Positions 556 to 21,100 of a stretch of 40,523 bases of DNA are shown piece after piece. The notes under the pieces are model-generated. The model was given only the letters and a program-made list of their open reading frames with translations. It did not search any database and was not told where the DNA came from. The translations under genes and the position numbers were made by a program. This stretch comes from Cyanophora paradoxa CCMP329. Lineage: Eukaryota > Plantae > Glaucophyta. The DNA lies in the NCBI GenBank assembly GCA_004431415.1, contig QPMI01000146.1, forward strand, positions 1 through 40,523, in the 5' to 3' direction. How positions within the stretch are numbered: position 1 is the stretch's first letter; each line of letters begins with the position of its first letter.

Positions 556-577
556 TAAATCTGACGGGCCCGCGAAA

Positions 578-841: not shown

Positions 842-846
842 AGAAC

Positions 847-1216: not shown

Positions 1217-1218
1217 CA

Positions 1219-1427
1219 ATGTCGTCCATGCTCCCGAGCCTCGATGATATCACAGCGATTCCCGCTACCTGGGCAGCCTGCTGACCCTCGGCGCGGTCGC
1301 CTACATGTCGCCCGCGCGCTACTACCTCGTGCGGATCCTCGCCGCGCAGTTCGCGGGCTACTACTTCGTGGGGCCCTACCTCCTCAAACGGCCTGAGGAA
1401 GGCATAATTTCTCAGGCCCCTTCCTAA
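1219..1427 (+). CDS. Small two-helix viral membrane protein (frameshifted)
   Basis: MSSMLPSLDDI../RYLGSLLTLGAVAYMSPARYYLVRILAAQFAGYYFVGPYLL; preceded by AATTTTCT-N15-ATG. Confidence 0.5.
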
Positions 1428-1430
1428 ATA

Positions 1431-1893
1431 ATGTCCTGCGTCAACCTCTACGTCCAGTCGAACGGAGAGACGCAGGATTCCGAGGGCTTCTGGCGCCTCA
1501 GGCTGAACCAGATCCCGCCGACATCGACACGCTGCAGATCAAGGGCGTCTACCTGGAGCTGGACACGACCGCGATTCCGGACCCCACCGCCGCGAAAACC
1601 GTCAACGTTCTGCTGATGGACGTGCCCGACTTGAACGTCACGACCATCTCGAACGTCAACACGTGCATCAACAAGGTCGTGATCCGACGTGGGGCACGAC
1701 GGCCTCGAGAACACCATCCTCTACTGGTTCGAGTGCCCATGGCCGTGCGCCCGAACTACGTCGCGTACGACAAGTTCCAGGAGCTGCGCGTGCGCTTCAC
1801 CGACATCACGGGCGCCACCAAGAAGAACAACGCCTTCATCGTCAAGAACTTCGGCTCTGGCCTTTGCGAAATAGATTTCGCAGGCCCCCTTAA
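1431..1893 (+). CDS. Putative minor capsid (penton-like, single jelly-roll) protein, frameshifted
   Basis: Reconstructed about 150 aa beta-rich protein: MSCVNLYVQS..WRLRLNQIP/ADIDTLQIKGVYLELD..VLLMDVPDL..KFQELRVRFTDITG..NNAFIV/ELRLW. The C-terminal 'xLxVxFxDxxG..N' pattern resembles PLV/virophage pentons. Judged by eye. Confidence 0.45.
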
Positions 1894-2367
1894 ATGCGCC
1901 TGATCATATTCCCGCGAAAGGGCTCGGGCGTCAAGACGCGCACCTTACGGCGTGCCTGGCTACCCCTCGCCCCTCACTTACAGAGTCGATCTTGTAACCG
2001 CCTCTGGTCCAATTAAATACGGGCTGCTGCACAGCCTCAGTCACATCCGTCTCGGCGAGAGCGCATGGCAGGACTTGGCCTTAATCGTAGAATTCGAGTA
2101 CAGGGGGGTAACACGCTAACGGGCGAGCACGTTTACAGGGTACGGGTAGCAAGGGAGGGGTACTCGCTGCCGAACGGCACGGGCGGGGAATACTGGGAGC
2201 CGAAAATACGCGACGCCTCCGAGGCCTACCGCTGGCTGCGTGACGAGCAGATCACTATCAGGCCCGATTACCCCTACGCCGACGTTTTCTGGCAGGTGCC
2301 CGTGGGCCGTTGGACAACGGGCGAGGTGAGCGGCAAGCTGAAGTGGACGTGGGACGCGGAGCATTAG
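1894..2367 (+). CDS. Viral hypothetical protein (frameshifted 5' half)
   Basis: TAAATG start abutting the previous stop; the C-terminal 100 aa are open (..YRVRVAREGYSLP..YRWLRDEQITIRPDYPYADVFWQVP..). Confidence 0.5.
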
Positions 2368-2392
2368 TTAATTTTTCTCTCTCGCGGATAAA

Positions 2393-5300
2393 ATGTCGAT
2401 GCTCGACGACCCCTGGCGCATGGCCATCCCGAATCCGGACGAGGTGCTGAACGGCGCCTTCGCGATAGACGGGAGCCTGAGCGTGAGGGGAATTTACGCG
2501 ACGAGATAAGGCTGCGCAAGGGCGGACCTACAGCGATTTCCTGACGTCCGTCGGTACCTTGGACGATTACGGTGACCTCACCGCAATTATCAAGGGGCTC
2601 TGGGCGTCACGACCGAGACGGGCGTGGACTGGAACATTATTAAGAGGGCGGCCGACGTGAAAATCGCAAACTCCGTTACAGCGAAAGACGCCACCCTGAA
2701 CCTCGTGAAACTGACTCTAAAGGGCGCAGAGGGGACGTGAGCCCGGGTACAACGCACTCGAGCGCATCGCGGCCCCCTGCGCCACATCTACTGGAGCCGC
2801 CAGGCGCTGCCGAGCATGGAGCCCGAGCAGTACAGGCGCGACAGGGAGGAGTTTTCGCGTGGTTCGACCACTTCAAGGTGAACATCCGCGCCCTGAGCGC
2901 CGACAGGACGGGCGAGACGCCGGAGACGACGGCGGGGGCCGCATCCCAACGGCACCCGACGTGCTCCCGATCGCTCAGACTGGGCGAAGACGCAGAACTG
3001 GGCGCTGAAGGACCACTTCCACGACGAGAGGTACGCCTCGTCAAGCACCCGCATGTGAAGGCCGACATCACGGACTGGGCGCACCGCCACCTGTACGACG
3101 ACATCATCGCGGGCCCAAGGTGCCGGGCGCGATTCCGGGTGGGGTACGGCGGCGGAAGCACGGGAGGTGGGGGTACAGGCACCGGGGGTGGGGGTACAGG
3201 CACCGGGGGTGGGGGTACAGGCACGGGGGGCGGAGGGGGCCCCAGTGGCACGCCCGTGGGAGGGGCGGGGGTAGCAGCGGCTCGGGTGGCGGCGGCTCGG
3301 GCGGAGAGAGCGGCGGAGGGGGTACGCTCGTGCCGATCCTTGGTACAACAACGGGAATCTTCGCGCGCCCTGATTGCAGGCGGTGCAAAGTACTACAGGG
3401 ATCGAAGGCGTACGAAAGGGACATTGCAGAGCTGCAGAAAGATAACAAAACGATCGTTTACTCAGACGAGCAGGTGAGAATACTGGCAGAGGAGCTGAAG
3501 ACAAGGGAGCGGCAATTTAACGAAATGAGACAGGGCCGAGAAAAAGATAGCGGACGATTTTGAAAGAGGCGAGCGATAGAATGAGAATCCCTGGAGGCGA
3601 GGAGAAAGCCGAGATCCGGAAGAGAGAGGCCGATAGGATCGTGGAAAACGCGATAAGGGAGGCAAAGGAGCAGGCAAGGACCGAGCTGGAGAAACTGGAC
3701 ATGGAAATAGCAAACAAGGTCAACATAGCAAACGAGTCGAAGAGGGCACAAAGATGCTGGACGATGAGCGAAAGGCAGCGGAGGAGCAAGCCAGAAAAGC
3801 AAAGGAGGATTTAAGGCAGCTCGAACTGCGAGAACAGGAGAGGCAGAAGGCAGAGGGGCTCGCATCCACCATACGATTCAACCTAGAGCAGCAAGTGAAA
3901 ACGCTGACGGCCGAGCTGCAGAGGATAGGACGGCTGTGCCAAGGGGCACAATGGAGACGCAGACGACGCCAAGGCCCGATCCAAGGCCGGCCGCCGAGAG
4001 GCTGCCCTTCGCGCGGCTGGGTAGGAGCGACCAGGTGGAAGAGCTCATTGGCCTCACGCTCGAGGATCAGAGGGCCCTCTTCGACGCGTTAGAGCAGCGG
4101 CGCAGGGCGGACGAGGAGGCAGCTGCCAAGACAGAAGAGGAACGACTGAAGGCAATGCAAACTGCATCAGACGAGGAATTTGCACGGCTGGAGGAGCCGA
4201 AGGTAGCGGAGCGTAAGCGACGACTGGAGACGTTCAGGGGGCGCAGATGGATTTTTACCGCTCGGAGCTCAAAAGACTGAAAGAAGGAAATGCATCGGGG
4301 ACAGGCTCCGCGCCATGGAAGAGAACATGCGCGACTTTAGCTACGTTATGGATCAGCTGACGGGAAGGGGTCAGAAAGACGCCGAAGAACTGAGGAGAAA
4401 GATGCCGATGAGAAGTGGAAAAACTTTGAGCGTCAGGCTGTTCAGAGGCCCATCAGCGATGCCATCTGGATAGCATACGGCGACGTGGAGGAGATGCACA
4501 GAGAACTGCGGACGGAAGCGAGCCTGTGGCGGGGAGCCCTCGAATGGTCACTGTACCGGATACAAAAGGGGGAGTTTTTGGCAGAGCTGCGAGCCAATCC
4601 GAAAACGGTGAGCGCGGGCGCACAGAGCGCGTACCTCTCCATGGTCGATTACGTGGGCAAGCTGAGCAAATTTTGGGAAATGCGAAGAGCCATCATTCCA
4701 GCGGAGGGGCTCGCGCAGTACGATGCCATGGTGCGCGATCTGGAGGCCTTCAAACGTGAGCACCCACCCGCCAATACAAGATTCACATAGATACGACGGC
4801 ATTCATGGGCGATCTAAGGAAGAGAGGAGACGAGGCCAAGAGTCAGATCGAGGAGCGCTACAGAAAGGCCCAAGCGGACAAGGAGTACGCAAACAGGGTG
4901 ATCGAAGAGCGGAAGCAGCAAGCCAAGGAGAACGCGGCGAGACGCAACGCCGAGATAGAAGAGCAGAGGCGGAAGATCGCAGAGCGCAAGGCGGCAGAGG
5001 AAGAGGCAAGAAAGACCAAGGTAGAGACAGAGTACCAAGCATTGAAACGGGAGGCCAATCAACTGTTAAAAAGGAGGGAAGGGCCTACGCCGACGAGGGC
5101 GCGGGCGTGGGCTCGGCCAGCCCGGACGACATCACCCTCGCGGAAAGGGACGACGTTTCCGTAGAGGAAATGCGCCCGGGCACGGCTCGCCTGCCCTCCG
5201 AGGGCGTATTTCAGACGCTCGACAGGCGCGTGATGGGCGACTCGGACGTTATTCTGCGCAACGCCCTCATGCCCTACGGCGACTGGAACCGCGCCACCGC

Positions 5301-7457
5301 CGACGCCCTTGCGATTTCGACCTCGAGCGATTCACCACCAAAGAGCAGCGCGACGCCTTCCTGGGGCGCCCGAGGGCCAGGCGGCCCGGGGTGGCCAAGG
5401 AGGCCTTCAGCGCAGAGACCCTCTTCTCCGCGATGGGTACGGCGAACAACGACGGCATGTCTTTCGGGGCAGCCGATTTATTTCAGGGGCGGGCATCGAC
5501 TTGGTGGGCGCCGGGCTGGGGGTACGGGCTCGCGGGCCATGCGGCGGGCGGGCGCGGCGGCGGCCGGCCTTGGGCTGGCGACGGCGGCGGCCTGCTCTCG
5601 CCTACCAGGCGCTCTCGCAGGGCAAGATAGGGGAGGCCGAGTTCTTCGATACGTTCCGCGATCAGATGATCATGACGGTCGGCTCCTTTGGCCTGCAGAC
5701 GGGCATGTCGTCCGCCCTGAGCGCCCTCACGAAAATGAGGATCGGCACGGTGGGCGGACTTGGCCTGTCCATCCTCGCGGCGCCATCGCGCAGGTGATCG
5801 TGGATATCATCAACGGGCGCAGCGCGGAAGAAATCGTGAAGAACTTTTTCAAGTACCCCGTTGACTGGGCGGCCGACACCATCCAGTTCATCGCGCAGCT
5901 ATCGCAGCAGATCTACGACTGGGGCGTCGAGACGTGGGGCGACGAGGCGAGCCAGCTGCGCAACCGAATTAATCGGCTGGAGGGCGAGCTGGGCTCCGGA
6001 TTTTTGGGTGTGTACGACCCCTCGGAGGCGCGCGAAATGGCCTCGCTCTTGGCCCAGGAGCTGCGGTTAAACGAAATCAAGGAGCCGAAGGAGCTGCAGG
6101 CCTTCATTCGCGCGCTCGACAACAGCATCAACGATTACCGTACCCCAAGGACCAGAAGACGCTGCTCGAAATCGATCGCGCAACCGTGCTCTTCCTCTCC
6201 CAGCTCACCGTTAAAATGCAGGAGGGATTCGGGTCGACCTCGCTCGCCTGAGTCGGCTGATGCGCGATTTAAAGCAGATGGTGAAGGAGGAGACCAAGGG
6301 CGGAAGCGCGTCTTAATTGCCGTCTACCAGGAGGGCCTCAACAGGATCAATCACATCGAAGCCCTAAGGCGCGAATTCGGCTCGCCATCCGTCACTCGGG
6401 CGTCTCGTCGAACGGAGGGCGCAGGTGGCCCGCCTGGCGGACGCCAACTCGCGCCTCGAGATTCCCGGGACCTTCCGCATGCAGGATTGGTGGGAGGCCG
6501 AGGCCTTCAGGAATTACGGGGCCTTCATAGACAACGGGATCAATTCGCAGAGCCCAAGGCAAACTGGCTGGTACCCAAGGCCTACGTCGATAAATTGGTT
6601 GACAGGCCTGCAGCACCATACACAAGAAGATCGCCAAAGGCATCGAGTACTGGGCGCCCGAGCCAGGCCAGCCCGTGTTTGCATCGCAGAACTACGAGTG
6701 GCACATGGCGCCGGGGGCGAGCCAGGCCGTGAGCACCGTGGGCGTTGCCGTGCCGCAGCTGGCGACGGTGGCACACACGGGGGCGTATGCAGATCTCAGC
6801 GGGAGCCGACGATACCCGTGATACCAACAACGTGGGCGTGGGATAGCATCACGGGGAAGCCGAGTACGTATCCCCACGCAGACCACCAGCACACCATCTC
6901 TCAGATCAGCGACTGGACGGCCCGGACTTGACGAACATCTCCGTGGATTGGGACAACGTAACGGGCAAGCCACTACCTTCCCCCCTCTACACACAGTCAC
7001 AATGTGTACTGGGATAATGTCATCGACCGACCCACTTCCTTCCCACCCTCTACGCACAGTCACACAGAGTACTCGCTCACCAGCCACGGGCACAGAAACG
7101 TGAACATGGATGCGTACATAACGCACGGCACGTCCTTCCACTCCTACGCTGCGTACACGGAGTTTAACATCAATTCAACATACACGGTGACGTTCAACAT
7201 TACATTCGGACAGGCGTACGACACTGGAGGCGGACTGGGGACCCCAGCAAACCAACGCCGGTTATTAACGTAACCCCTCGTTCGACATCAATCCCGGCGG
7301 CAGCACGGATGTCGATTTCTACGGGGCCAACGTCACGGCGGTGAGTCACACTGGCTTTACAGTTAAAGTGAGATTCCAACCCAGAATGACGGTCACGCCC
7401 ACCCAAATTGTCCAGCTTTTTATTCATTGGACCGCGATCGGCAAGCTGCTTATGTAA
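2393..7457 (+). CDS. Giant fibre-like virion protein (about 1,690 codons if one gene): HxH tail-fibre repeats, Gly-rich hinge, long coiled coil, Gly-rich hydrophobic segment, C-terminal H-type-lectin/gp53-like domain; many frameshifts
   Basis: Overlapping frames give continuous protein-like text from ATG 2393 to TAA 7455-7457. Motifs: HPHVKADITDW, LATVAHTGAYADLSG, WDSITGKPSTYP, WDNVTGKPTTFPPSTHSH, ITFGQAY..VTAVSHTGFTVKV..FIHWTAIG. Confidence 0.62.
3155..3310 (+). repeat. 21-bp tandem repeat encoding GGGGTGT within the giant ORF
   Basis: GGGGGTGGGGGTACAGGCACC about 3 copies, followed by Gly/Ser-rich sequence. Confidence 0.8.
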
Positions 7458-7481
7458 TCGATTTTCTGATGCAATCCAAAA

Positions 7482-8518
7482 ATGTCGGTCGCTGTCCCTC
7501 TATTTACCTATGCTGCCAGCGTGAATCACAAGGGCGATCACACGATTAAGGAGACCACCCTCGGAAACCAGGCCACCGAGGCCCCCTACAACGCCACGGC
7601 CGTCCCCTTTTCCGAGGCCGACCTCGTCCGCGTCGGCGAGCTGCGCTGCGACAAGATGCGCACGCGGGAGGGCGGGTCGGCCGTGCCGGGGCGCGTGAGG
7701 ACGCAGAGGCTCACCGTCACGAACGGGGCCTGGACGGGAGCGGGTACACCACGAATCAGGTGACCTTTAATGGGACTGTGAACGGGGAGGGGAATGCGGC
7801 TCTGTATGTGCAAGGAGGCGGAGCAAACGTGGTGGGGGGCTTAGGTGAGCGGGGCTTCAAACTTGGCGGGCATCGTTACATTGGACGATAAGCTGCAAAT
7901 TACCGGAACGTCACCGTACATAAATGGCGGTGGTTCAGGCGTAGCTATAAAGTACAACGAAAACGATAGACTCCTCTGTGGGACTCTTGGCGTTGGTGTT
8001 ACAGGTACTCTATTTACCTCGGCAATCGAAGGCCCTACTAATGGCCTAAGCATAGCAAACACTTCAATCGTTGATAGCGGAAGCGTCAGCTCTGGTCTAT
8101 CCTTGAGAAACAACGGCACCGAACGACTGCTGTGCGGAACCGTCGGCGTTGGCATCACGGGTCGGCTCATCGTCTCGACGCTCACGGGCGATGGAAACCG
8201 AGCCGTTTATTCGGATGCTCAAGGATACCTGACAAACTCGTCGAGCGATAGCCGCCTGAAAGAAAATGTCGCGAGCATGTCGGGCATTCTCCCTCTTCTG
8301 CTGCAGCTGAATCCGTGTCGTTCACCTGGAAGAACACATCCTCGGGGGTTCGAAAACGGATTACGGTCTCATCGCACAGGAAGTCCAAGGCGTCTTCCCG
8401 AGTCTCGTTTCGAGAACGCGGATGGATTTCTCGGGTAAACTACGACAGGCTCATTTCCCTGTCGTTGAAGGCAATTCAGGAACTTTCACAAGAAGTTCAA
8501 ACTCTCAAAGACCAGTAG
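7482..8518 (+). CDS. Fibre protein with C-terminal intramolecular chaperone (peptidase S74) domain; frameshifted
   Basis: SSDSRLKENV..LLQLNP/VSFTWK../LIAQEVQGVFP/..VNYDRLISLSLKAIQELSQEVQTLK is the classic S74 signature. Internal repeat RLLCGT(L/V)GVG(V/I)TG occurs twice. Confidence 0.85.
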
Positions 8519-8555
8519 CGGCACTGGCGAGCTGATCTGGAACAACTAGGAATAA

Positions 8556-10692
8556 CTACACCGCGAGTATCACAATTCGACCGTTGCCACCGTCGCTGAA
8601 AGACGAGCCACCGTTGCCGCCCCTACCAATGCCTGCTGCGTAGTGAGCGTCTCCGCTATTTCCTGCCACCTGGCCGGACCCAGGATACACCGTAGCATCC
8701 GTCAAGTTTCCTATGTAGCTCGAGCCACCGCCACCTCCAAACATTCTTGCTATTGGGTTCTCTGACACTCCGCTCCTGCTGGACCAGAGCCTCCACCGAA
8801 GTAACCACCACCACCACCACCACCGAACCTGTAGCCGCTTGAATCAGGCCCAGTCTCTCCACCTTGGCGCAAAGTTCCCGGGTTGCTGGGCCTGGCCCCT
8901 GAGGCCACAACACCGGCTCCGCCAGCGGTTTGGGTGCCTCCTTGAGCCGGTATCTCTCCGGTTACTCCAACCAACCCAGCCGCACCACCGGTCAACCCCC
9001 GCCTACTCCCCCGCCGCCATTCGAATCACATGTACCCCCACCTCCGGCCCCTGCAACAACCAAGTCGGTCCCTGCAACGCGCTGAATTGCAGAACGACCA
9101 CCACCGGCGCCGTTTTTGTACTCCGGATCGACGCTATGGCTCCAGCCCCTTCCACCACCTCCGTAGACGGTAGCAGTGGCAGTCCCCGATACACCCTTTG
9201 GGCCGCCGCATCCAACAACAAGGATGAGCGTCTCCCCCGAGGACACAGCCAATGTACCAACTACGCAAGCACCCGCGCCTCCACGGACCCCCGTACCTGC
9301 GCGTTCTCCGCCTCCACCCCCGGCCGCCCATACGATGACACGCACAGCCACAGTCCCCGTTGGTACTACGAAAGTCTGGTCGGCCCCGGTGTAGGAGAAT
9401 GTACCCAAAACAGGAGCGTTTGCAGTTGTTGCACTGGCAGACGAGGACTGAGGGCCTTCCTCGCCGATCTGGTTGACGCCCTTGATGGTGTAAGTGTAAG
9501 TGGTTCCGTAAACGGTCGTTGTGTCCGAAAAGGGGCTGCTCGTGTCGCTGGCAAGGAACACGCCACCCCTGTAGATGTTGTAGGAGACGGTGACGCCCGT
9601 CACCGGCACCGACCACTCGAGCACAACAGGCTGTGCTGCCCCCGCCGCGGGGTTGCAGTGAGCCCAGTGGCGCCCCCGGGTCCGTGGTGACGTACGCCGC
9701 AATACTCTTCGGCCCTCCCCTCCCGTGTTCGTCGCGGAGATCTGGTACTCGTACCCTGTACCCCAGACGGTGGTCGTGTCGCTGTAGGAGTTGGTCGCGG
9801 AGTCTGTGAGGTAGGCCCCGTCTCTGTAAATCTTGTATCCCGTCGCTCCCGTGGACGCAGTCCAGCTGAGGCTGACAGGCTGCTGCTGGTCGTTGGGTGC
9901 TGATGCCGTCACGTTCGTGGGGGCGTTTGGCATAGTCCAGACCAGGAGCGGATCGGACTTGTCGTATTCGACACCGCCCACGATGCCGGCCACCTGGTAA
10001 GAGTATTCCGTGCCCCACGTAAGAGCAGTGCTATCGTCAATGTACGAGGTAGACAGGGCACTGCTCGCAAATCCGATTGGCGTACCGTTCCTGTAAATTC
10101 GAATCGAGTCCGCGCCCTCCATGGCCACCCAGTTGATTGTGACGACTATGGCGGGTTTCGGGAAGCCCGAAGACGCGGGGCCGCCCCCGGCAATAAAATC
10201 GCCGTAGGTCTGGGCCGTGGCGGTCGTGAGCGTGGTGTAGGCTTCGATCTGCGGGCTGAAGCCGCCTATGCCTTGGAAGAGAATGTAATTGCTCATGGCA
10301 CCCTCGTGGGTGTAGAGAAGCGACTGTGCGTAGGTTGTGGGCGGGGCTTTGCCATCAGAGCCCGTGCTGCTGCTGCCCTGTTCGCGAACCGCCGCCACGC
10401 GGTAGAGTCGCTGGGCCCCCAAACTAAAGGGAGAGTCCGTGTAGGTGACGGTTGGCGCATTCACCGTGGCCACGAGATCCCAGGGGCCGTTGATGCTGGT
10501 CGCCCTGTACACCTTGTACTTGACGGCGTTGGTGACCGCGACCCAGTTCAGCTGAAAGCCGTACGTACTGTTCCCGTTGTTGAGCACGGAGCCCGATCGC
10601 ACCTGGGGCCTGCCCACAGTCAGCGAGATCGGCTCCACGCCATACTGCGGAGCCTGCACCACCTGCTTTTTCACGAATACGAAGCGGGGCAT
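8556..10692 (-). CDS. Protein with four fibronectin type III repeats and a C-terminal glycine-rich domain (ALK/LTK-like Gly-rich type); frameshifted
   Basis: Four LxW...YxIYR...YxD...GxxYxYxV/I units. FSYTGADQTFVVP..VRVIVWAAGGGG, GGGGGYFGGG, GGGGSSY and terminal GGNGRIVI. Confidence 0.85.
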
Positions 10693-10731
10693 TTTCCTCT
10701 ACGATCCGAAAAAATATCTGCCCCGGGGTAA

Positions 10732-11411
10732 ATGACTTCCAACTGGTACCAGACCCTCAGCGGCTCACTTGACGTTGGCAACAACACCAAGGATTTCGCA
10801 CGCATACCCTCCGGCAGTTACGTCGACGTCTTTCTGCAGAATCCCGTCGTGATTCAGGTCGTTCAGAACGCCTACGCCACGCCCAAGATTTATTCCTACC
10901 AGCTCTTCTTCGACCCTCTGAGCCTCAGCGCAGAGGTTATCGAGCTGCTGCACGAATCAGGACTCGTGAAAAAGGTGGCACCTGCCACGGCCACTGCCAA
11001 CGTCTTGCGCTGTCTCGAGGTCAAGTTCAGGGAGACGGGGTACGGCCCCACCGTGAACCGGTACCCCAGTTCTTCGAATCTTCCGGGTACGGGAACTTAC
11101 CAGATGAGGGGTACGCTCAAGGGCGACGTGCTCTTCACGAAATTCAATCCAAGTCCCGCGACCCTGGGGCCCTCTACACGGGCGGCAACCCACGCGGCTC
11201 GACTCTACCCCGCTTCCCCTTCACCTTTTTCAGGTTCCAGGTCTTCCCCCTCTCCTACGCCGCCGACCAGCCCCACTTCAGCACGGGCGCCAGCCTCTGC
11301 GCGGAGCTGCGTGAGTGCTCGATTTCCTACGCGTACGGCACCGACGCTGACTCTGTGCCTGGGGCCCGCGTCATGAACATCGGTGGCGACATCACCCTCT
11401 TTCACGGATAA
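10732..11411 (+). CDS. Viral beta-rich hypothetical protein, paralog A (frameshifted 3' third)
   Basis: ORF from TAAATG; shifted frame ends AELRECSISYAYGTDADSVPGARVMNIGGDITLFHG* at 11409-11411; similar to the next gene. Confidence 0.65.
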
Positions 11412-11434
11412 TCTTTCTCATTTGAGGTCGCAAA

Positions 11435-12245
11435 ATGCCGACCACCTCGGCCACCATCGTGAAGACCGTGTCTGCCGGCTCGATCGTCCCCGATTTCTAC
11501 GGCAACGCTGGGAACGTGGCCAACGCAGGGACGGACAAGGTGGAGTGGGACGGAAACTACGCCACCCCGCTCACCGTGAGGGTCCAGAATCCCGTCATGT
11601 TGCGCGTCACCTCCAACGATTTCGAGAATCCCGCCTCCTGCTCCGTGTACGTGTACTTTGACATCGACTCGGGCGTGAGCGCGGATGAGGCGGAGGCGCT
11701 CTGGCTCTCGGGCCTCCTGAAAAAGATAGAGCCCTCTGTGCCTGATCGGCCCGCCATTCGCGTGCTCGAACTCAGTTCACCGCTAACACCGCCCTCACTC
11801 GCAAATTCGGGAATGGTGCGAATCCGAACATCAAAACGCATTTAGATGGCGCCCTCATCGATGCCACACACAAGACCACGCAGGCCGTTCCCTTTGAGAT
11901 GTACAACCTCTGGAAGATGACCGCAAAGGAGATGATGACGAATGCCACCACGGGCGGCGCCTCGGGTACCGATTATTCATACGGCGCCTCGAATCCCCGT
12001 ACCCAGGTCTGGCCCCGCTCCTCTTCACGAAATTCACTTTCAAATTGTACAACAACATCGCCGGAATGCCTACCTCTGGAATGGTCGTGGGCTCTACCCT
12101 CATGGCCGAACTAATTGAGGCAGAGGCGGACTACACGACTGCGACTACCAACTCGACAGCGCCAGGCGCCGGAGCCGAAGTTTACGTGGCCTGGGAAACG
12201 GTCGGTCGCGAGTACGACACCAAGATTCACACCACTAGCGTCTAG
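11435..12245 (+). CDS. Viral beta-rich hypothetical protein, paralog B (frameshifted)
   Basis: ORFs 11435-11845, 11899-12114 and 12045-12245 join into about 270 aa. Shares QNPV, SGL(L/V)KK, LFTKF and AELxE..PGA with paralog A. Confidence 0.65.
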
Positions 12246-12599
12246 ACTGGCTAAGCTGCATTAGCACCTGTGTCGCCTCCATCATCTCCCGAATCTCCTC
12301 GCTCTTCTCCTGTAAATTGGCGTACCCCCTCCTCTTCTTGCGAATCTCCGACATTGATGCCCAGCGCAGGTTCTCCCTCCTGTAGTCCAGCGGGTTGCCG
12401 TTGATGTGTTCCACGTAGCGTCCACGTGGCGACTTCCCGAGGATCAGCTGGAGAGGTAGTGCTTGCGCCCTCCAAACGTCTTGCTCACCCTGTCCCTGTC
12501 CACTCTCCAGGGAAACTCCAAGGCACTCGGGGGTACGTCCGAGTTGACCAGGACGTTGTAGGCGACGTCTTGCGAGTCGGTGCACCGGAGCAGGGCCAT
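12235..12599 (-). CDS. HNH endonuclease (HNH_3-like), one frameshift
   Basis: MALLRCTDSQD..RKHYL/QLILGKSPRGRYVEHINGNPLDYRRENLRWAS matches the DHINGxxxDNRxxNLR pattern; AAAATG start at 12599. Confidence 0.8.
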
Positions 12600-12620
12600 T
12601 TTGCCCTAGGTTCAGAAAAA

Positions 12621-12709
12621 CCTGGGACTTGGACTTGGGACTTGGGACTTGGGACTTGGGACTTGGGACTTGGGACTTGGGACTTGGGACTTGGGACTTG
12701 GGAAGAGTT
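12621..12709 (+). repeat. CCTGGG(ACTTGGG)11AAGAGTT module, copy 1 (G-quadruplex-forming)
   Basis: 10 perfect and 1 imperfect heptamer, counted directly. Confidence 0.95.
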
Positions 12710-12810
12710 GAAACCCAGGTCCCGGCCCAGACTTTCTCCAGGATCAGAAATTTGTCAGACAAGTCAGGTGAGTTTTCTACCGACTTTTTTACTCCTACCA
12801 CTCCTCATAC

Positions 12811-12857
12811 TCTTTTTTACTCGTAGTCTTTTTTACTCGTAGTCTTTTTTACTCGTA
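12811..12857 (+). repeat. 16-bp tandem repeat TCTTTTTTACTCGTAG, about 3 copies
   Basis: Read directly; a further degenerate copy lies at about 12784. Confidence 0.9.
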
Positions 12858-13136
12858 TCCCATCTCGTACCCTCCTTCTCTCGACATCTCACACGAAAAC
12901 TCCTACCCCTCTTCACATCCGTTTTCGGTTGCATACTCTCGTGAGCTTTCATGTCCAGTATCATGCTACAAGTCGTACACCAGTTCAGACTCTACCTCGC
13001 TTGAAATCTCACCTGGAATGTCACCAGAAACGTCATATGCAGATTTCCGTACCCCTCTACATGTCTGCCCGGTGGTTAGGGACTTGGCGCGGCAAACTCT
13101 CAGATCCAGAGAGATTCTGGCCCAGACCCTGAGTCT

Positions 13137-13198
13137 AACTCTTCCCAAGTCCCAAGTCCCAAGTCCCAAGTCCCAAGTCCCAAGTCCCAAGTCCCAGG
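13137..13198 (-). repeat. CCTGGG(ACTTGGG)7AAGAGTT module, copy 2 (inverted relative to copy 1)
   Basis: AACTCTT(CCCAAGT)7CCCAGG on the + strand. Confidence 0.95.
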
Positions 13199-13268
13199 AT
13201 CGCGCCAAGTCGTAACTGAATAGTCGGCCAATTTTACAAGTATGTACAATGGAATGACGCAATACTAT

Positions 13269-14338
13269 TTACAGCATCTCAAAGTCAGAGTCATCGTCAT
13301 CGGAAACCAACTCAATGAGGCCCTCGGGCGCCGACTTAAGGGGAATGCGGGGAAGGGACTGCGCTGCCTGCACCAAGTCCTGCCGCTCGCGCTCGCGCTG
13401 CGCCGCCAAGGCCGCTGCCGCCTCTGCCTCGCGCTGCTGCTGAGCCTCGATGCGCGCCTTGAGCTCGGCCGCCTCCTTCTGCTTGCGCTCGGCGATCCGC
13501 GCCTTGTTGATCTGGTACTGGACAAGGCGCTCGTGGCGCCGCTTGCGCTCCAACTCCTTGCGGAGCTCGTTGCAGAGGACGCGCTTCTCAATGGTCTTGA
13601 CGTGCTGAGTCAGGCGCTCGCTGTAGTGTGACGTCACGCGAGAACGGGCAATGCCGGCGCCGAGCTTCAAGTCCTTCTCGTGTGCCTTGGCGGGGTCCTT
13701 GACGCGCTCGGAGTTGTCGGTGAATGACGTAGTCTCCATGAACTTCTTCTTGACGATTGACTTGGTCTTGATAATGCGGCGCTTGCGAGTCGGGTTTTCG
13801 TTGTCGCCTTCAGAGTCAGAAGACGACTCAGAGTCGTATGGAATCGGCACGTCAAAGTCGATGAAGTCGTTGATGTCAGACTCGACGTCAGAGGCCTCGG
13901 ACTTGGCGTCATCGGCGGGCTCGGGGGCGGGCTCGGCGACGGGCTGAGGGGCAGATGACGACGATGACGGAGGGGGGTAATTCGTGAAGACTTGAGGGGG
14001 GTAGGCCCAGGCGAGCGTCTCGGCAGCAGACTCGGCGAAAAGCTTGGGGTCGCCCCAGCCGTTGGCGGTCTTGACCCAGCCGGGACGGGGGGCACGTCGA
14101 CGGGGGGCTCGGGCTTGGGTTGCTTGGACTTGGATTTCTTGGCCTTGGACGTGAAGGCGGACTTGGGGAGAAGTTGCACTTCGGGGCCAGTGGCGCGTAA
14201 GATGGCATAATTGTAGATGTACCCCAGAGCGTCGGCGCGCTGCTCCATCTCAGGGGTAGCCCCTTGAGTGCCACCGGAGTTAGCCCACGTTGCTTGGACA
14301 AAGGCGAAGTCCTCGGCAAGCTCAGCGGGAATCGACAT
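13269..14338 (-). CDS. Viral hypothetical protein: Pro-rich/acidic linker, basic NLS-like stretch, coiled coil, C-terminal SIM-like acidic tail; frameshifted
   Basis: MSIPAELAEDFAFVQATW.. joins ORF 13269-13850 (RKRRIIK, ELRKELERKRR.., LIELVSDDDDSDFEML*). Confidence 0.7.
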
Positions 14339-14678
14339 CTGCGCAAAGGGAAAAGAAATCAGCAAAGGCAAAACGTGAGGTGACTGTGAGGGCGGACTTG
14401 TGAAAATTCGGAGAGGCGGGGTTTCCTTGGGCTGAGAGAAGGCGGCGAACCCGTTTCAAGAGTGAGCCAAAATGGCGGCGGACCGCGGTTTTGTGGGCGA
14501 TTTTTTTCGCGGTCTAGTTCGCAACGGAAAACGTTGCCAACTGGCCTGAAAAAAGCCAAATTTAGCGTTGGACCGAAGGCAGAAAAAGGGAGCCGGCCTG
14601 ACGGAAATCGCCCGAGTGCGTCCGCCGAAGGTCGAGTCTCGGGCCGGGGGTACACCCTCAGGGGCCCCCCCTGGCCCC

Positions 14679-15148
14679 TCACCCTGGTAGTGCCCTCTCA
14701 AAGGGATTTTCGAAGCCGTACAATTCTTGGTAAGTCTCGTAATCCGGGCTGTACCCCCTCACAATCTGCGGGAGCCCCATTGAAAGCCTCCGTCTATCCT
14801 CTCTCAATTCCCTGCGGAAAAGTCTACGGTCTTCTCGAGCTTCGCGTGTCACGCCAGCTGGGCGTGGTCTATGATTGTTAGGGTTGTCGTAGCCTGGTCC
14901 CACCAGCCTCACGAAATTTTCGCGTATGGCCTCGGGGAGGCTCTGGAAACGGCTCGTCGCGTGGAACTCAATCCATTCATTGAATCGACGCGGATATTGA
15001 CGGATGACTTCAAGCACGCCCTGTGTGTTGGGCTCTGGTGTTACGTCGGGATGTCATGTCCCGTGAGGTGCCAACGCCAGAACTCGCGCAACCTCTCGAA
15101 TGCCATATTCAACTCAAAGGGAAAATCGTAATAGAGATTGCCTGACAT
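14679..15148 (-). CDS. Viral hypothetical protein (one frameshift)
   Basis: MSGNLYYDFPFELNMAFERLREFWRWHLTGHDIP/DVTPEPNTQGVLEVIRQYPRRFNEWIEF..; AAAAATG start with the upstream motif. Confidence 0.65.
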
Positions 15149-15199
15149 TTTTCTCCCCGTCCGAAAATTTCCCCGCTTTTGGGTCCAGACTCTGATTCC

Positions 15200-15261
15200 A
15201 ACTCTTCCCAAGTCCCAAGTCCCAAGTCCCAAGTCCCAAGTCCCAAGTCCCAAGTCCCAGG
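15200..15261 (-). repeat. CCTGGG(ACTTGGG)7AAGAGTT module, copy 3 (direct repeat of copy 2)
   Basis: AACTCTT(CCCAAGT)7CCCAGG on the + strand. Confidence 0.95.
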
Positions 15262-15869
15262 TCACATTTTTCTCCCATTTTGACTCGAGATTCTGACCAA
15301 GTCCAAATCCGGGCCCGGGATTCGAACCCTCGTTTTCGATCGATTTCACGCGTGAAAACGGCACTTTTCGGCCTTTTCCGATTTTTCCTTTCTCGCGATC
15401 GCATTAATGTCCCCGATCTCGAAATCGCGATCGAAAAGGGTCGCGATCGGGAGAAAATCGCGATCGCCAGGGTCGTGATCGGGTCGCGATCGCCGCGATC
15501 GCCAGCCTCGGAGGGGGTACCCCCACAGCTGTTGCGGCGGTTATAAGAACCTCCGCAATCCAAGCGTCACTTCCGAGTCTCGAGCTCTCGGAGTTGACTT
15601 TTCGCGTTTGGCCCATTGATGGCCCTCATATATATACCGTATACGTAGTATAGTGCGCATACGCGGTTCCGCGGCGGGGATCCGCGGCCGGTACCGATGG
15701 CCGGGCTAGCCATCGAGTTTTCTGATCATGAGGATACAAGCTTAAGGGTCTAGTCTAGAGCTTAAGCTTATGTATGTATCGGGCGGTGGAGGCCAGGGCC
15801 GGGGCATGCGGGCCTCCCCAGCTGCAGCCTCCCCATGGCCACGAGGGGGGAGGGGCCCCGAGCCCGCCC

Positions 15870-17585
15870 CGCCGGCGCGCCCTCTGCCTTCGCACCCTCC
15901 TCTAGCCCGGCCCACGTGCACACCCGACTCCCCTTCTGCCCCCCCCCCCCCTCCCTACTGATTTCTACCTCCTCCTTCCCCCCCCCCCCCCCACCCCAAC
16001 CCCCACCCCCCCTCCCCTAGGCCTCCGGCGCGGCTGTACGGCTTTCCGATACACGGGGTACACGCACGCACGACTTGGCCCAGTGGGGGCCGGTGGTGGG
16101 GTGCAGGGGGCAGGTCACGACCAGCTGAAGGCCTTAAGCTCAATATAAAGCTAATTATATAAGAGGCGGGGAGGATCTTGGGGCTGCCCGGGGCGCCGCC
16201 GGCCTCCCGAGGCCCCACTGGACGCGCTGCACGGAGACGGAGCGCGCGGCCGGGCGGTGCAGCGCAGGCTTGAGCGAGGGCGGGGCCGGCACGGCCGGCG
16301 CCCTCCTCCGGCCGCCGCCCCTCCCTCCGCGCGCCCCGCCGCCCTCCTGCTCGAGGACTGCCTCCTCCCCGCCGACGAGGCCGCCTGGCCCCCCGCCGCC
16401 TTCGCCGGCGTCAGCCGGTGCGCCGTCTCGAGCGCCGGTTCGCGCTGTACCCCCCAACCGAGCGTCCCGCAGGGTCTCGATCCGGGTGCGGGGCCGGGGC
16501 CCCCGGGCCGCGGCGGGGGGCCTGCCCCTCGCCGCCATGCGCTGGCTCCACCGTCCGCCCCTAGCCTCCCTCTCTCCGCCCCCAAAACCCCCCTCGGCCG
16601 AGCCCCCGCTAACGTAAACCCAGGCGGGGCGCACGCGGGGACGCTGGGGGAGGTCGAGGTCGAATTGAGCGGCCCCGACCTCGAGTGGCCCGCCCGCCCC
16701 GCCCCGCCCCCGCCCTCCCCGGTGCCCCGGGCCCGCCCCGCGCACCCACCCACCCAAGCCCTCTCAAGCCCGCCCGCCCCGCGCGCCCCGCCCCGCCCCG
16801 CCCGCCCCGCCCCGCGCTAGACCTGGAGCGCCTGCCGGGGAGCTCGCGCGCCTCCCGGAGGGCGCCCGCGTCGTCCTGCGCCTCCCCGCCCGCTTCCGCG
16901 GCTCCAGGTGCGCACCCCCCTCCCCCCACGAGTCTTCTGAGCGCGGGGCCGGCCGCGGGGCGCCAGGTTCGTGGACGGGCGGCTCCCGGCGCTGGTGGAG
17001 GCCGCGCGGGCCTTCCCGCGCCTCCTCCGCGCCCTCGAGATCCACGAGGGGGAGGAGGGGGAGGGGGAGGGGGAGGGGGAGGGGGGGGCGGCCCGGGGCA
17101 CCCTCGACCGCGCCCTGTTCCGATACCGCGCCGCCCGCGTGCGCCCGTACCCCTTGCCCCTTCATCCAGTATGTGGGATCGCTGAGGGGCGCGCGGGGTG
17201 CAGGAGTGCCTGGCGGCGCTGGACGCGGCCGGCGCGGCGGCGGCTTGCGAGCTAGCGCTGCGCCCCCTCTTCCTCCGCACCCTCCTCTAGCCCGCACCTG
17301 TACCGCCCTCCCCCTTTCTCTGATTTGTACCTACGTATACTCCCCTCCGGATCCCCCTCCTCCGGATCCCCCTTGGCCTCCGGCGCGGCTGTACGTATAC
17401 GGCTTTCCGACGTCGACTGCACAAGCTTAAGGGCCGCCCGTGGTACACACACGCACACGGGACTTAGCCATGGGCCGGGCCGGGCCGGGCCGGGGGCGGG
17501 ACTTAAAATTCGACCGGCGGGTCATGATCACGATGGCCAAGGGGGCGCGGCCGGCCGCGGGGCCCGGGGCGGGGATGACCTTGCC
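15870..17585. repeat. Diverged, partly tandem duplication of the 3' end and downstream flank of the C2-domain gene (homologous to about 34020-34490)
   Basis: 16175-16295 matches 34368-34487 (CCCCACTGGACGCGCTGCACGGAGACGGAGCGCGC). 17100-17480 matches 34025-34325. 15890-16080 matches 17275-17470. Confidence 0.8.
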
Positions 17586-18103
17586 AACTTGGCAAGTTGG
17601 GGCTCAGCGGCTGCCCATGGCCAGGGCCCCGCCGGCCATCTCGAGGCGCCGGCCTCACTAGTACTAGTACTGGACCTCAGGGCCTGCCGCACGCCTCCGC
17701 CTCACCTCAGAGCTCAGAGCTCATGATCAGAGAACAGAGAACAGCATTCAAGCTCGAGCTCAAGTGCAAGCTCGAGCTCGTTGTCAAGCGTCTTTAATAT
17801 AATGAAGTTTTATCAAGCTTCTTGGCTCACCTTCAAGCTTATAATTAAGGCTGAGTTCAAGCGCGTGGCTCTCAGAGTCTTGAGCACATGTACAAGCTTC
17901 CCGGCTCGAGCTCAAGCTACAGCAAGCGCCATGCTCAAACCTTTAGGCTTGATCTCGAGCTTCACAATCAAGCTCAAGCTCAAAGCTCCGAAGATCAGGC
18001 AAGATCTAGAACGGCTAGCGCCGACCACCAAGCTTAAGTTATTTCCGGCGAAAGCGGCACCCCGCCCAGCGCCTCAGCGGCCGGGCGCCCCCGGCGCCGG
18101 CGC

Positions 18104-21100
18104 ATGCGCATGGCCAGGGGGAGCCACGACGCCGCTTTCGGCGGCATTGTGGCTCTCCGTACAGCCGATCTGGAGGCCTGGACGCGCTTCGCGGATCGCG
18201 GGCGGATCCGGAGCCGCGCAGACGATGTGACCACCGAGGAGGCGTGTTCGGTGTTCCGCGCTTGCAGCATCACCTCTAGGCAGTTCTTAGAACGCTGCGC
18301 GAGGCGCGCGGAGTGCCCGTATGGTGCGCTATCCCGATGACATCGATATCCGGGATATATCGATCCCGAAGATCACGGAGCCTCCAGGACGAGTTCGACC
18401 GCTCACGCCCGACGCGCAGCATGGTCTTCCGAGCACGACAAAGTGTCCGCGAGCGTCCCACATCGATGCAGCTACGTGTACCAGGCCAGCCGAGCCCCGC
18501 CGCGCGTCGTTGCGCCCCGAGAGCCTCTGCCGATCAGCGATCCCTCGAAGAAGCGAGCGCGGCCGAGCGGCGTGCAGGAACAGTATGCACTGGACGTTGC
18601 GGAGCGCGTCATGGCGAAGCAGCGCGGCGTCGCCGAGCGCGTCCTGCGGCAGCTCGAGCCGGAGGACTCGAACTCGCGCGCCGCGATCGGGCGCTTCCTC
18701 CGCGCGCTGCGCGCCATCGACGACGACGACGACGACGACTCCGACGACGACGACGAGCATCTCGCCGCGGCGCTCGAGGACGCTCGCGACGAGGCGGCGG
18801 CGCTGCACCGCCTGTCGCTCCGGCAGGTCGACGAGGTGACACGGTCCCCGCCGCTCCGCCGGCGCCGCGGCTGACCCCGGCGCAGGCCTGCCTGCTACGG
18901 CTCGTGCAGGTGCACATCTGGACGCTGCTGCTGCGCGGCGAGGCGCGGGACGCAGTCCTCGAGCCGCTCGCCGCCGCCGTGACGGACAGCTTTGCGCCCG
19001 ACGCCGGCCGCGCCTGCCGCCGCTGTGGCGAGGCGTGCCCCTGCGGCGGCTGCGGCGGCTGCGGCGGCTGCCGCTCGCGGGCGCCGCACGGGCGCGTGCC
19101 TGGCGCCTGGCACCTGCACCCGCACGCCCTCGGAGCCCCGGCGTACGCGGACTTTCGCGCCGCGCTGCTCGACGCCTTTCCTCACCTCCTGACCGCCGAG
19201 ATCGTTGACGGTCAGGAGCTCTCATGGTGTTCTCTGCTTTCGTGACCATGATGGCCTTCGCAGCGGAGGCGCTGAGGTGCGCGGTGTGGGAGCGGAGGCG
19301 GCGGGAGGCGGCGCGCGAGGCGGAGAAGTGGGGCGCCCTGAAAGCCGCCTGCACGCCGCCGAACCTGGTCAGCGCCCTCCTGCGGACCGCGCGCGCCTAC
19401 CTGCACAAGGCCGCGCGGCGGTTCCCGGCGCCAGCTGCAGTGCGGGAGGGGACGGCAGCGTCGCGCGTGCGCGTGCTGGACCTCAGCGGCAAGGAGGTGG
19501 GCAGCGACGGGCAGCCTGCGGGCCTGCACGAGCGGCTGCAGGAGGAGGCGGCGCGGGCGGCGGCGCGCGGCGCGGCGGAGGCGGCCGCGCTGTACGAGGA
19601 GCACGTCGGCGGGGCGGCGCGGCGGGCGCTCGGCGCGGGGCGGGGGCGGCCGGCGCCCGCCGACGTCGAGTGGGAGGAGCTGCTCATCGTACGGACGCTG
19701 GCGGAGGGCGACGCCGCGGCGGCCGCGGCCGCCGAGGCGCGGGCGGCGGAGGCGGGGCGGCGCGCGGATCGGCTGCAGCGCGCAGCGGCAAAGGCGGAGC
19801 GGGCGGCGGCCGTGGCCGAGCGGGAGGCGGGGCAGGCGGAGCGGGCTTTCGCGAGGGCGTCGGTGGCGGCGGTTGCGGCGGAGGCGGAGGCCGAAGCGGC
19901 GGTGCGGCAGGCGCAGGCGGCGGCCGAGAAGCAGCCGAAGGCGGCGGCGGACGCGGCGGCCGCGGCGGCCTCGGCGGCCTGCGCGAGGGCCGCGGAGCAG
20001 CTGGACCGCCTCCTGGAGAGGCAGGAGCGGCTGGAGCAGCGGCGGGCGGGTGCACCGGAGGGCCGCGCGGCCGCGCAACGGGCCCGGGCGGTGGCCGACG
20101 AGGCGCTCGCGGAGGCGGCGGCGGCGTCGCGGGCGGCGGGGCGGGCGTCCTGGCCGCCGCTCTACGCTCGCTTCCGGCGGCTGGCGGCGGAGAGCTGCGG
20201 GCAGCCGGCCGAGTGCGTGGACCTGGCGGTGTGCGCGGCGCTGGCGCGGCGGGCGGTGGCGGGGAGCTGGAGGGGCGGGCCGGGGGCCCCCTGCTCGCCG
20301 CCCTCGTGGAGCGCTGCGCGCCGAGCGGCGACGGCCGTGGCCGCGCCGCCGACGAGTGGCTCCTCGACCCGAACGCCTTCGACGAGGTCGAAGGGTGCCG
20401 GCCGGCCGATCGCGACCCATCCCTCTGCGCGTGCGCCCCGGCCCCTCAACTCGACCTCGTTCGCAGATACGAGAGCTTCCGGTCGGCGTCCGCCATCGCC
20501 GTGTGGCGCATGCTCGACGTGGGCGATCTCAACCCGGCCAGTGCCCGCTCCTCCTCCGACCTCGACGCCTTCGTGGACGGTCCGTCCTAGGCCTCTGCCG
20601 CAGCGGGGCCTTCGAGCGCGCCCCGATCGCGATTCCCGCCGCAGAGACCGTCCACCGGACGGTGCTGGAGCTCGCGCGGCGCAACGCGGGGCGCTGGCGG
20701 CGCGCCAACGCCCGCGCCCGCTTCCTCGCCTTCCTCGCCCGCCACCGCAAGGCCGCTTCGCGGGCCAAGGCGCCGATCCTCGACCCCTGCGCGTGCCAGC
20801 CCGACTGTGTGCGCTCTGCTTCGAATCTTTGTTTGGCGATGAACGACTGATGCGTCTTCCTGCCTCAGGACGACGGGCAGGCGATGGCGCCGCTGTTCGC
20901 TTCGCGCTGGGTTCGGCCGCATCGGTTCGGGCCGCCGCTGGGCCGCTCGGCCCTCTCCGCGGCGCAGGCGGCCAGCGTCCGCCGCGAGTACCTCCGCTGG
21001 GCGCAGGCGGATGTCGGCTGGCCCGACGGCCTGCCCCCCTCGGCCCCGCTCCCCGTCGACCTTGCGGCGCCGGTGGATCCGGAGGACGACCCGCCGGCGG

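Follow-up and report, generated by a model that had tools for sequence, protein, structure and literature searches.

Three capped heptamer arrays as candidate gene-boundary repeats in a multi-copy, virus-like element of Cyanophora paradoxa

What are the three G-rich tandem arrays that lie between genes on one contig of the glaucophyte Cyanophora paradoxa CCMP329, and do they serve the DNA that carries them? We analysed the whole stretch of 40,523 nt (contig QPMI01000146.1, assembly GCA_004431415.1), here called the window, starting from an original prediction that described three telomere-like modules with fixed caps. The modules and the genes around them are as follows.

8992-10692, minus strand: fibre-like gene with fibronectin type III, RGI-lyase beta-sheet and phage-tail-like matches
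12238-12599, minus strand: HNH endonuclease gene with a frameshift here (121 aa in intact relatives)
12621-12709, plus strand: module copy 1, consisting of CCTGGG, a 6-nt unit ACTTGG, (ACTTGGG)10 and AAGAGTT
13137-13198, minus strand: module copy 2, CCTGGG(ACTTGGG)7AAGAGTT, 70 nt past the gene 1 stop codon, its G-rich strand being the gene 1 sense strand
13269-14338, minus strand: cassette gene 1, with no assigned function; the intact form has 356 aa, and here a G is missing after 14081
14679-15148, minus strand: cassette gene 2, with no assigned function and a frameshift near 15047-15050 in this copy
15200-15261, minus strand: module copy 3, CCTGGG(ACTTGGG)7AAGAGTT, with the gene 2 ATG 51 nt downstream, its G-rich strand being the gene 2 sense strand

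The three arrays, each of the form CCTGGG(ACTTGGG)nAAGAGTT, were found with their fixed caps where they had been predicted. A 17-nt two-unit probe, allowing up to 2 mismatches, matched the window 22 times, and all 22 matches fell inside the arrays, against an expectation of 0.00 from 100 shuffles. Tandem Repeats Finder delimited arrays of period 7 at 12623-12703, 13143-13196 and 15206-15263, with 97-100% matches. The predicted unit numbers of 11, 7 and 7 hold for the two arrays of seven, and for copy 1 the figure of 11 is reached only by counting the unit that is short of one G. The array-side boundary of the module is sharp in all three copies and the outer ends are at CCTGGG; heptamer identity between arrays is perfect over 49 nt, and positions 13119-13198 and 15182-15261 (copies 2 and 3) are 95% identical over 80 nt. 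The cap-plus-tail motif had no fourth copy in the 40.5-kb window. This anatomy was read from one copy of the element.

The arrangement was also as described. Copies 1 and 2 are inverted around a spacer of 427 bp (about 430 bp had been claimed), whereas copies 2 and 3 are in direct orientation, with starts 2,063 bp apart, and bracket two genes (14338 to 13269 and 15148 to 14679). Of the two copies said to lie near gene starts, copy 1 is 21 nt from the HNH gene ATG at 12599 (minus strand), in opposite orientation, and copy 3 precedes the gene 2 ATG in the same orientation. All three copies are intergenic. Other gene gaps in the element are about 40-60 nt, and the 670 nt that separate gene 1 from the HNH gene form the largest non-coding gap in the compact gene region at 4.7-15.2 kb.

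The families of the genes flanking the modules were found in Cyanophora paradoxa only. Among 5.8 billion clusters, the gene 1 family comprised 29 clusters, and its 56 member sequences were without exception C. paradoxa entries of EukProt. The fibre-like gene family comprised 21 C. paradoxa clusters. On 25 contigs a gene 1 model is separated from a fibre-gene model by 2-4 gene numbers, with the same gene order throughout, as in a dispersed multi-copy mobile element, and the HNH model adjoins a gene 1 model by gene number in 10 of the 12 named HNH models. From DNA sequencing runs, 154 and 195 short contig pieces fell on the 2 kb at 13205-15195, with alternative letters at the same places, the cassette being represented by several co-existing sequence variants at high k-mer depth. 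Together, the C. paradoxa-only families, the kept gene order and the sequence variants indicate that the modules lie inside a dispersed, multi-copy, virus-like element. None of the listed runs that contain the stretch is recorded as RNA. Six runs guessed to be RNA contain 23-35% of the words, and their contigs, 90-99% like the window, cross intergenic DNA, so these runs may be DNA.

Judged by its sequence, the element is virus-like, dispersed and multi-copy, with fibre-like genes and an HNH nuclease gene, in agreement with the virus-like surroundings that had been assumed from the start. In this copy the HNH gene, gene 1 and gene 2 are all frameshifted. Polinton-like viruses are integrated in protist genomes, C. 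paradoxa included (PMC12220804), and the element resembles them in forming, within the genome of an alga, an island that is present in many copies, poor in introns, lower in GC and equipped with phage-like fibre genes. Unlike them, it showed no capsid or packaging ATPase gene (no Pfam or PHROG match in ORFs of at least 70 aa at 1-16000), and the window yielded no recognisable gene for a polymerase, primase-helicase, Rep protein, integrase, recombinase, reverse transcriptase or transposase, nor terminal inverted repeats enclosing the element as a whole. The window may cover only part of the element. A text search of the main text of Bellas et al. 2023 (PMC10120064) found no mention of Cyanophora, glaucophytes, tandem repeats or telomeres.

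A 669-aa ORF had only 13 relatives; a search of viral contigs found none, and Atlas searches with this ORF and with gene 1 returned nothing usable. Gene 2 had no significant match in a PDB sequence search, none of 10 ORFs around the arrays was present exactly in the protein collection, and the window scanned negative for Rfam families and for tRNA genes. A scan for bacterial-type promoters and terminators, which is not applicable to a eukaryote, found nothing near the modules.

Does the module occur outside the element? In probe searches, the capped module was found in 0 viral and 0 metagenome contigs. The bare (ACTTGGG)4 probe matched at least 120 metagenome loci and 1 viral contig; among 124 metagenome ACTTGGG arrays, none had the AAGAG cap and 4 had CCTGGG. 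None of 81 ORFs flanking these arrays, picked from 150 listed of 153 found, had an HNH match, and those with family matches were ordinary bacterial genes. We therefore rejected the bare arrays as relatives, since those in metagenomes lie between bacterial housekeeping genes, without the AAGAG cap and without HNH neighbours; they look unrelated to the capped module.

Within C. paradoxa, summed word depth in two of the runs (X1 / X4) was 7,448 / 4,037 for the module 3 flank bin and 9,207 / 4,569 for the module 2 flank bin, and gene bins ranged over 3,393-18,733 / 1,222-10,743. Both flank depths thus lie inside the gene-bin range, and none of the 10 loose ends listed, of 11, falls at 15100-15195, indicating that the flanks are as multi-copy as the genes. 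As far as tested, neither of the two outcomes that would have told against the original prediction, a host-wide repeat unrelated to the element or a module missing from related viral copies, was observed: the flanks of modules 2 and 3 are as multi-copy as the cassette genes, and searches beyond this organism did not find the capped module. Equal depth is no proof of function, because amplification by copying retains neutral DNA too.

The sequences that adjoin the arrays bear on how the three copies arose.

12710-12766, plus strand: tail of copy 1, homologous to the copy 2 tail and terminating in the splice-donor-like CAG/GTGAGT
12710-13136, no strand assigned: spacer between inverted copies 1 and 2, 427 bp, containing no ORF with a family match
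13075-13136, minus strand: tail of copy 2, holding GACTTGGCGCG (13081-13091, plus strand)
15145-15199, minus strand: tail of copy 3, terminating in the 13-mer GGGAGAAAAATGT (15145-15157), which includes the gene 2 ATG
15264-15276, minus strand: second exact copy of the GGGAGAAAAATGT 13-mer, 2 nt 5' of module 3

The predicted inward likeness of copies 1 and 2 was recovered as a 53-nt gapped alignment, with mismatches, between their tails, which 2 of 2000 shuffles reach, and the outer flanks of these copies are unrelated. Homologous tails with unrelated outer flanks favour an inverted duplication of copies 1 and 2. The array-proximal 78 nt of the arms, at 12650-12727 and 13119-13196, are 90% complementary (whole arms, about 145 nt), and the foldback at 12621-13198, 578 bp long, has a predicted energy of -127 kcal/mol (z = -19.7). 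The spacer carries a 16-nt tandem repeat, TCTTTTTTACTCGTAG, in 2.9 copies at 12811-12857. We rejected a PacBio palindrome artefact as the source of this structure, because the arms extend for no more than about 145 nt, the two tails have diverged from each other, and independent short-read runs contain 72-79% of the words of 12300-15600.

Copy 3 has a different setting. The second GGGAGAAAAATGT 13-mer is reached by 0 of 2000 shuffles, and the two 13-mers enclose module 3 and its tail in a way that resembles a target-site duplication; such an exact direct repeat, together with the sharp array-side boundaries, favours an insertion-like origin. For copy 1, AGGATCAGAAA in the tail (12740-12750) matches AGGTTCAGAAA (12608-12618), just 5' of module 1, at 10 of 11 positions, a weak match that 51 of 2000 shuffles reach, among ten comparisons. 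The flank repeat of copy 2 is an inverted 11-mer, not a direct repeat: the reverse complement of GACTTGGCGCG lies at 13201-13211, across array 2, with 11 of 11 positions matching (3 of 2000 shuffles reach it). The flanks of the 12621-13198 pair share no direct repeat and show no target-site duplication.

We tentatively favour the reading that all three arrays derive from a single non-coding module, situated in the intergenic DNA of the multi-copy virus-like element and spread within it by one insertion-like event and one inverted duplication, and that they would, if they act at all, be punctuation at gene boundaries and not a telomere mimic. With its heptamer array, its fixed ends and a tail of 20-55 nt, the module measures about 120-150 nt. 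Copy 3 or its ancestor would have inserted at the start of gene 2, duplicating 13 nt of the target, and an inverted duplication with its breakpoint at the array would have produced copies 1 and 2 and hence the 578-bp foldback; array length would then have drifted by slippage to 7, 7 and 11 units.

It is also possible, if somewhat doubtful, that the module is a small parasitic repeat nested in the element and without a role for it, either a foldback or MITE-type transposon (copies 1 and 2 forming the 578-bp element and copy 3 a solo arm) or a very short retroposed 3' fragment whose terminal tandem repeat, read on the C-rich strand as (CCCAAGT)n, abuts a target-site duplication of variable length. 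Some foldback (FB-type) transposons and MITEs have terminal inverted repeats built of short tandem repeats, and the pair at 12621-13198 is like them in its long inverted arms, made mostly of a short tandem unit, its sharp CCTGGG outer ends, seen in all copies, its non-coding loop and its strong predicted hairpin. It is unlike them in that no target-site duplication surrounds the pair, a third, solo copy has the 13-nt direct repeat, and no transposase gene is nearby. Non-LTR retroposon insertions, for their part, have 3' tandem-repeat tails and target-site duplications of variable length; here the array is at the extreme end, by the flanking repeat, the unit number varies, and the direct repeats of copy 3 (13/13) and copy 1 (10/11) differ in sequence and length, as in target-primed insertion. 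However, the unique part is just 30-50 nt, the window holds no reverse-transcriptase partner, the copy 2 flank repeat is inverted, and the homology of copies 1 and 2 continues through the putative duplication of copy 1. Further against a parasitic repeat, the depth of the tail-3 bin is not above that of neighbouring gene bins, which, at a likeness of at least 90%, gives no hint of additional copies beyond the element, and the array-encoded peptide, in the one frame searched, is in no C. paradoxa gene model of 103-331 aa.

A role at gene boundaries would depend on the G-rich strand. Each module satisfies the G-quadruplex consensus (at least 4 runs of at least 3 G, with loops of 1-7 nt) with 8-11 GGG runs and 4-nt loops, and ViennaRNA with its G-quadruplex option predicted two three-layer quadruplexes per module; the C-rich strand folds at 0.0 kcal/mol. 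The claim that the GGG-N4 repeats form G-quadruplexes is thus sustained at the level of prediction. G-rich RNA polymerase II pause and termination elements and promoter-proximal G-quadruplexes are known, and the modules are like them in having GGG runs on the sense strand past the gene 1 stop (copy 2) and before the gene 2 start (copy 3), with a predicted G-quadruplex. The G-rich strand would meet polymerase arriving from gene 1 at copy 2, from the left plus-strand genes at copy 1 and from the right flank at copy 3, an argument from orientation that covers three sites only, with a known upstream gene at two. Facing an arriving polymerase in this way, the arrays would pause or stop it at the edges of transcription units, through a G-quadruplex or an R-loop, and copy 3 might also be a promoter-proximal leader of gene 2. 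Unlike G-rich pause elements, copy 1 is antisense to the nearest gene start, that of the HNH gene, so a single strand-specific role does not fit all copies.

Less probable is a replication origin or other structural cis site, in which the 670-nt gap would extrude a cruciform or G-quadruplexes and so recruit an initiator. The size of this gap, its 145-nt inverted arms with 16-nt direct repeats in a pyrimidine-rich loop, and its G-quadruplex-capable arrays are in keeping with an origin. TTGGGA[CG]T words match the window 32 times, against 1.44 expected, and 9 of the 11 matches outside the arrays are in a second non-coding repeat cluster at 29631-29748, a recurrence that would fit a protein-binding word. 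However, copy 3 lies outside the 670-nt gap, and the lack of any recognised replication gene (polymerase, primase-helicase, Rep) in the window argues against an origin.

More improbable still is programmed recombination, with inversion of the 427-bp spacer through copies 1 and 2 and excision or exchange of the two-gene cassette through copies 2 and 3, possibly after a break by the HNH nuclease. Homologous recombination would have an ample substrate in the 49 nt of perfect identity between arrays and in the 80 nt over which copies 2 and 3 agree at 95%, an HNH nuclease gene begins next to copy 1, and the N-terminal ~80 aa of gene 1 are hypervariable among family members. Yet the arrays do not border the variable part of gene 1, and no recombinase gene was recognised. 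The adjacency of the HNH gene and gene 1 at 10 of 12 named loci indicates that cassette loss is not common. Contig joints fall at 14036-14398, inside the cassette rather than at its ends. We consider it very unlikely that the arrays are cis sites of a cassette system, serving as G-quadruplex-forming marks for HNH cutting, with the two-gene cassette inverted, excised or exchanged among at least 50 element copies.

Two viral analogies offered by the original prediction fall away. The modules do resemble baculovirus hr regions and herpesvirus arrays as dispersed intergenic repeats in a virus-like genome. Baculovirus hr units, however, are imperfect palindromes of about 30 bp at several genome sites; the 7-nt unit here is not palindromic, so this analogy fails on structure. 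That the arrays imitate telomeres, so that the element could integrate at host chromosome ends or be tethered there as herpesviruses are, is barely credible: the likeness is one of general form only (a T/A-containing unit ending in GGG, in tandem), whereas the arrays are internal, not terminal, Tandem Repeats Finder returned no TTAGGG array in the window, and the unit ACTTGGG differs from the glaucophyte repeat TTAGGG, which is the product of Glaucocystis telomerase and agrees with that study's database searches for Glaucophyta (PMC3622300). The herpesvirus-style integration reading is thereby left with no basis here, and the telomere analogy can be dropped whichever reading holds.

The module is a real, well-delimited repeat, a result of modest practical weight. 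Within the plant supergroup the glaucophytes branch deeply, and little has been described of their mobile and viral DNA. As nested parasites, the modules would represent repeat-on-repeat colonisation. If they are the cis-acting signals that we tentatively favour, they would offer a first handle on the organisation of transcription or replication in a many-copy virus-like element of a glaucophyte. As inverted and direct repeats, 50-90 nt long, that surround a two-gene cassette, they supply recombination substrates and may drive variation among the copies of the element.

A non-coding module of 120–150 nt, consisting of the capped heptamer array CCTGGG(ACTTGGG)nAAGAGTT and a tail of similar DNA beyond AAGAGTT, occurs three times in the window, always between genes:

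12621-12709, + strand, module copy 1: one 6-nt unit ACTTGG, then ten perfect heptamers
13137-13198, - strand, module copy 2: seven heptamers
15200-15261, - strand, module copy 3: seven heptamers

The arrays have a period of 7 with 97–100% matches (Tandem Repeats Finder). A two-unit probe allowing up to two mismatches gave 22 matches, all within the arrays, versus 0.00 in shuffled sequence; across all 40.5 kb there are exactly three instances of the cap-plus-tail motif. The original prediction had counted 11, 7 and 7 heptamers; both sevens stand, and the eleven becomes ten plus the 6-nt unit. The geometry it described, with copies 1 and 2 inverted and copies 2 and 3 direct, was borne out, with 427 bp between the former and starts 2,063 bp apart in the latter. 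Copies 2 and 3 share 80 nt at 95% identity, and for copies 1 and 2 the tails gave a gapped 53-nt alignment whose score was reached by 2 of 2000 shuffles. In all three copies the boundary is sharp on the CCTGGG side, and similarity fades on the AAGAGTT side. Two three-layer G-quadruplexes are predicted per module; structure prediction gave none for the C-rich strand.

The modules lie inside a dispersed, multi-copy, virus-like element, with the following genes around them:

8992-10692, - strand, fibre-like gene: fibronectin type III, RGI-lyase beta-sheet and phage-tail-like matches; 21 C. paradoxa clusters
12238-12599, - strand, HNH endonuclease gene: two clusters, 12 named members
14338 to 13269, - strand, gene 1, between copies 2 and 3
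14679-15148, - strand, gene 2, between copies 2 and 3

Relatives of gene 1 form 29 clusters at 90% clustering (56 member sequences), all from a single source, with none outside it among 5.8 billion clusters. In its accessions that source is given as Cyanophora paradoxa (EukProt EP00741), and the gene-id format agrees with what the 2019 PacBio assembly paper gives (PMC6704402). From contig and gene numbers, models of gene 1 and of the fibre-like gene are 2–4 gene numbers apart on 25 contigs, and 10 of the 12 named HNH models adjoin a gene 1 model. At 4723-8532 (+ strand) there is what looks like a long fibre gene, split into pieces. For its 669-aa fibre-type ORF, a set of 1.84 billion representatives contains only 13 relatives, one of them of 1,395 aa; 6368-6928 has PHROG tail-protein matches and 8311-8532 a near-threshold endosialidase-chaperone (Peptidase_S74) match. 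Family matches of the window ORFs revealed no recognisable capsid, ATPase, polymerase, integrase, reverse transcriptase or transposase gene. Reports on C. paradoxa describe giant-virus-derived regions (PMC12344493) and polinton-like viruses (PMC12220804).

Fourteen DNA runs with one organism label contained 72–79% of the words sampled from 12300-15600. Comparison of two DNA sequencing runs (X1 and X4) with 13205-15195 produced 154 and 195 short contig pieces with alternative letters at the same places, and these co-existing sequence variants agree with the proteome count. Summed word depth there was 3,393–18,733 in X1 and 1,222–10,743 in X4, a depth without single-copy baseline and not a copy number. 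Both in the bin with the module 3 tail (15148-15195) and in the stretch that separates module 2 from the stop codon of gene 1 (13205-13271), depth was of the same order as in the gene bins, and among the 10 loose ends listed, of 11, none falls at 15100-15195. This indicates that the DNA beside modules 2 and 3 is multi-copy to the same degree as the genes, with no excess over them. The module flanks are thus as abundant as the element, and we infer that other element copies also carry the arrays.

All three genes adjoining the modules are frameshifted in the window copy (14081; 15047-15050; 12446-12599), and in other element copies the missing bases are present or the encoded proteins are intact, at 356 aa and 121 aa. 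Gene 1 lacks a G after 14081 that is present in every contig covering that place, and the intact form P0006 (356 aa) equals the two reading-frame pieces plus two joining residues. Compared with the DNA-run contigs, gene 2 lacks one base at 15047 or 15050; the ATG frame of the HNH gene stops after 51 codons, with the HNH motif in another frame. These frameshifts point to either slight decay of the window copy or indel errors of the long-read assembly. The N-terminal part of gene 1 and its upstream region (14036-14398) are hypervariable among element copies, with contigs joining 14036 to 14333, 14113 to 14362 and 14133 to 14309, and one contig having 181 other letters in place of 264 nt. Among the full-length family members compared, the first ~80 residues differ strongly and the rest is about 90–100% alike.

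Capped-module probes gave no matches in viral contigs or in metagenome contigs. The bare (ACTTGGG)4 occurs at no fewer than 120 metagenome loci, but these arrays were rejected as relatives because none of 124 has the AAGAG cap and because, among 81 flanking ORFs scanned (picked from the 150 listed of 153 found), no HNH match was seen and those with family matches were ordinary genes of bacteria. Two loci on bacterial-looking contigs (L034 and L051) contain (CCCAAGT)4, 15 nt and then (ACTTGGG)4, a tight heptamer hairpin that differs in architecture from the 427-bp-spaced pair in the window.

Just past module 3, the palindrome-containing word TCGCGATCG is found in five exact copies within 100 nt (15393-15492), and in 13 matches across the window versus 1.08 expected; the cluster may be iteron-like, or the element may have its terminal region here. 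A second non-coding cluster of related words (29631-29748 and 29835-29889), 14 kb away in a different lower-GC island, comprises nine irregularly spaced TTGGGA[CG]T words followed by alternating GGGACTC/GGGAGTC units. TTGGGA[CG]T has 32 matches in the window, against an expectation of 1.44, and the three module arrays account for 21 of these matches. Two direct-repeat pairs connect, in swapped order, the GC-rich blocks flanking the 25–34 kb lower-GC island, and a host-type gene lies further right:

16190-16300 and 34383-34493, direct-repeat pair, 88% identity
17075-17125 and 33999-34049, direct-repeat pair, 80% identity
38740-39663, + strand, host-type light-harvesting-like protein gene; best solved relative a PsbS-type photosystem II 22-kDa protein (E = 3.5e-12)

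Copy 3 and its 42-nt tail lie between the two units of an exact 13-nt direct repeat, GGGAGAAAAATGT (15264-15276 and 15145-15157; score reached by 0 of 2000 shuffles), and the ATG of gene 2 falls inside the downstream unit. This repeat suggests that copy 3 arrived by an insertion-like event at the gene 2 start. The flanks of copy 1 show a weaker direct repeat (10/11, reached by 51 of 2000 shuffles) and those of the copy 2 array an inverted one (11/11, 3 of 2000). Copies 1 and 3 share, at a corresponding distance in their tails, AGAAAwwTGTCAGnCAA (14 of 17 positions, 54 of 2000). For copies 1 and 2, homologous tails together with unrelated outer flanks suggest an inverted duplication that had its breakpoint at the array. 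That the modules are a functionless nested parasite, foldback or retroposon-like, is only slightly less probable than the reading that we favour below.

As single-stranded DNA, 12600-13220 is predicted to form one long hairpin (-127 kcal/mol, z = -19.7 versus 20 shuffles). Its pyrimidine-rich foldback loop holds a perfect 16-nt tandem repeat, TCTTTTTTACTCGTAG, in 2.9 copies (12811-12857). It is unlikely that the 670-nt gap between gene 1 and the HNH gene, which leaves copy 3 outside, serves as a replication origin or as some other structural site. Programmed recombination sites are still less probable. The telomere likeness seen in the original prediction fails on the unit, ACTTGGG versus the TTAGGG that PMC3622300 gives as the glaucophyte telomerase product, and a telomere mimic is highly improbable. 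A small share of probability goes to explanations beyond these four and the one that we favour.

The G-rich strand of copy 2 is the sense strand, 70 nt past the gene 1 stop codon, and that of copy 3 is the sense strand as well, 51 nt ahead of the gene 2 start codon; in copy 1 the G-rich strand faces rightward transcription. Judging from position and orientation only, we tentatively favour a reading in which transcription would pause or terminate at the modules, at the borders of transcription units, with a promoter-proximal role for copy 3.
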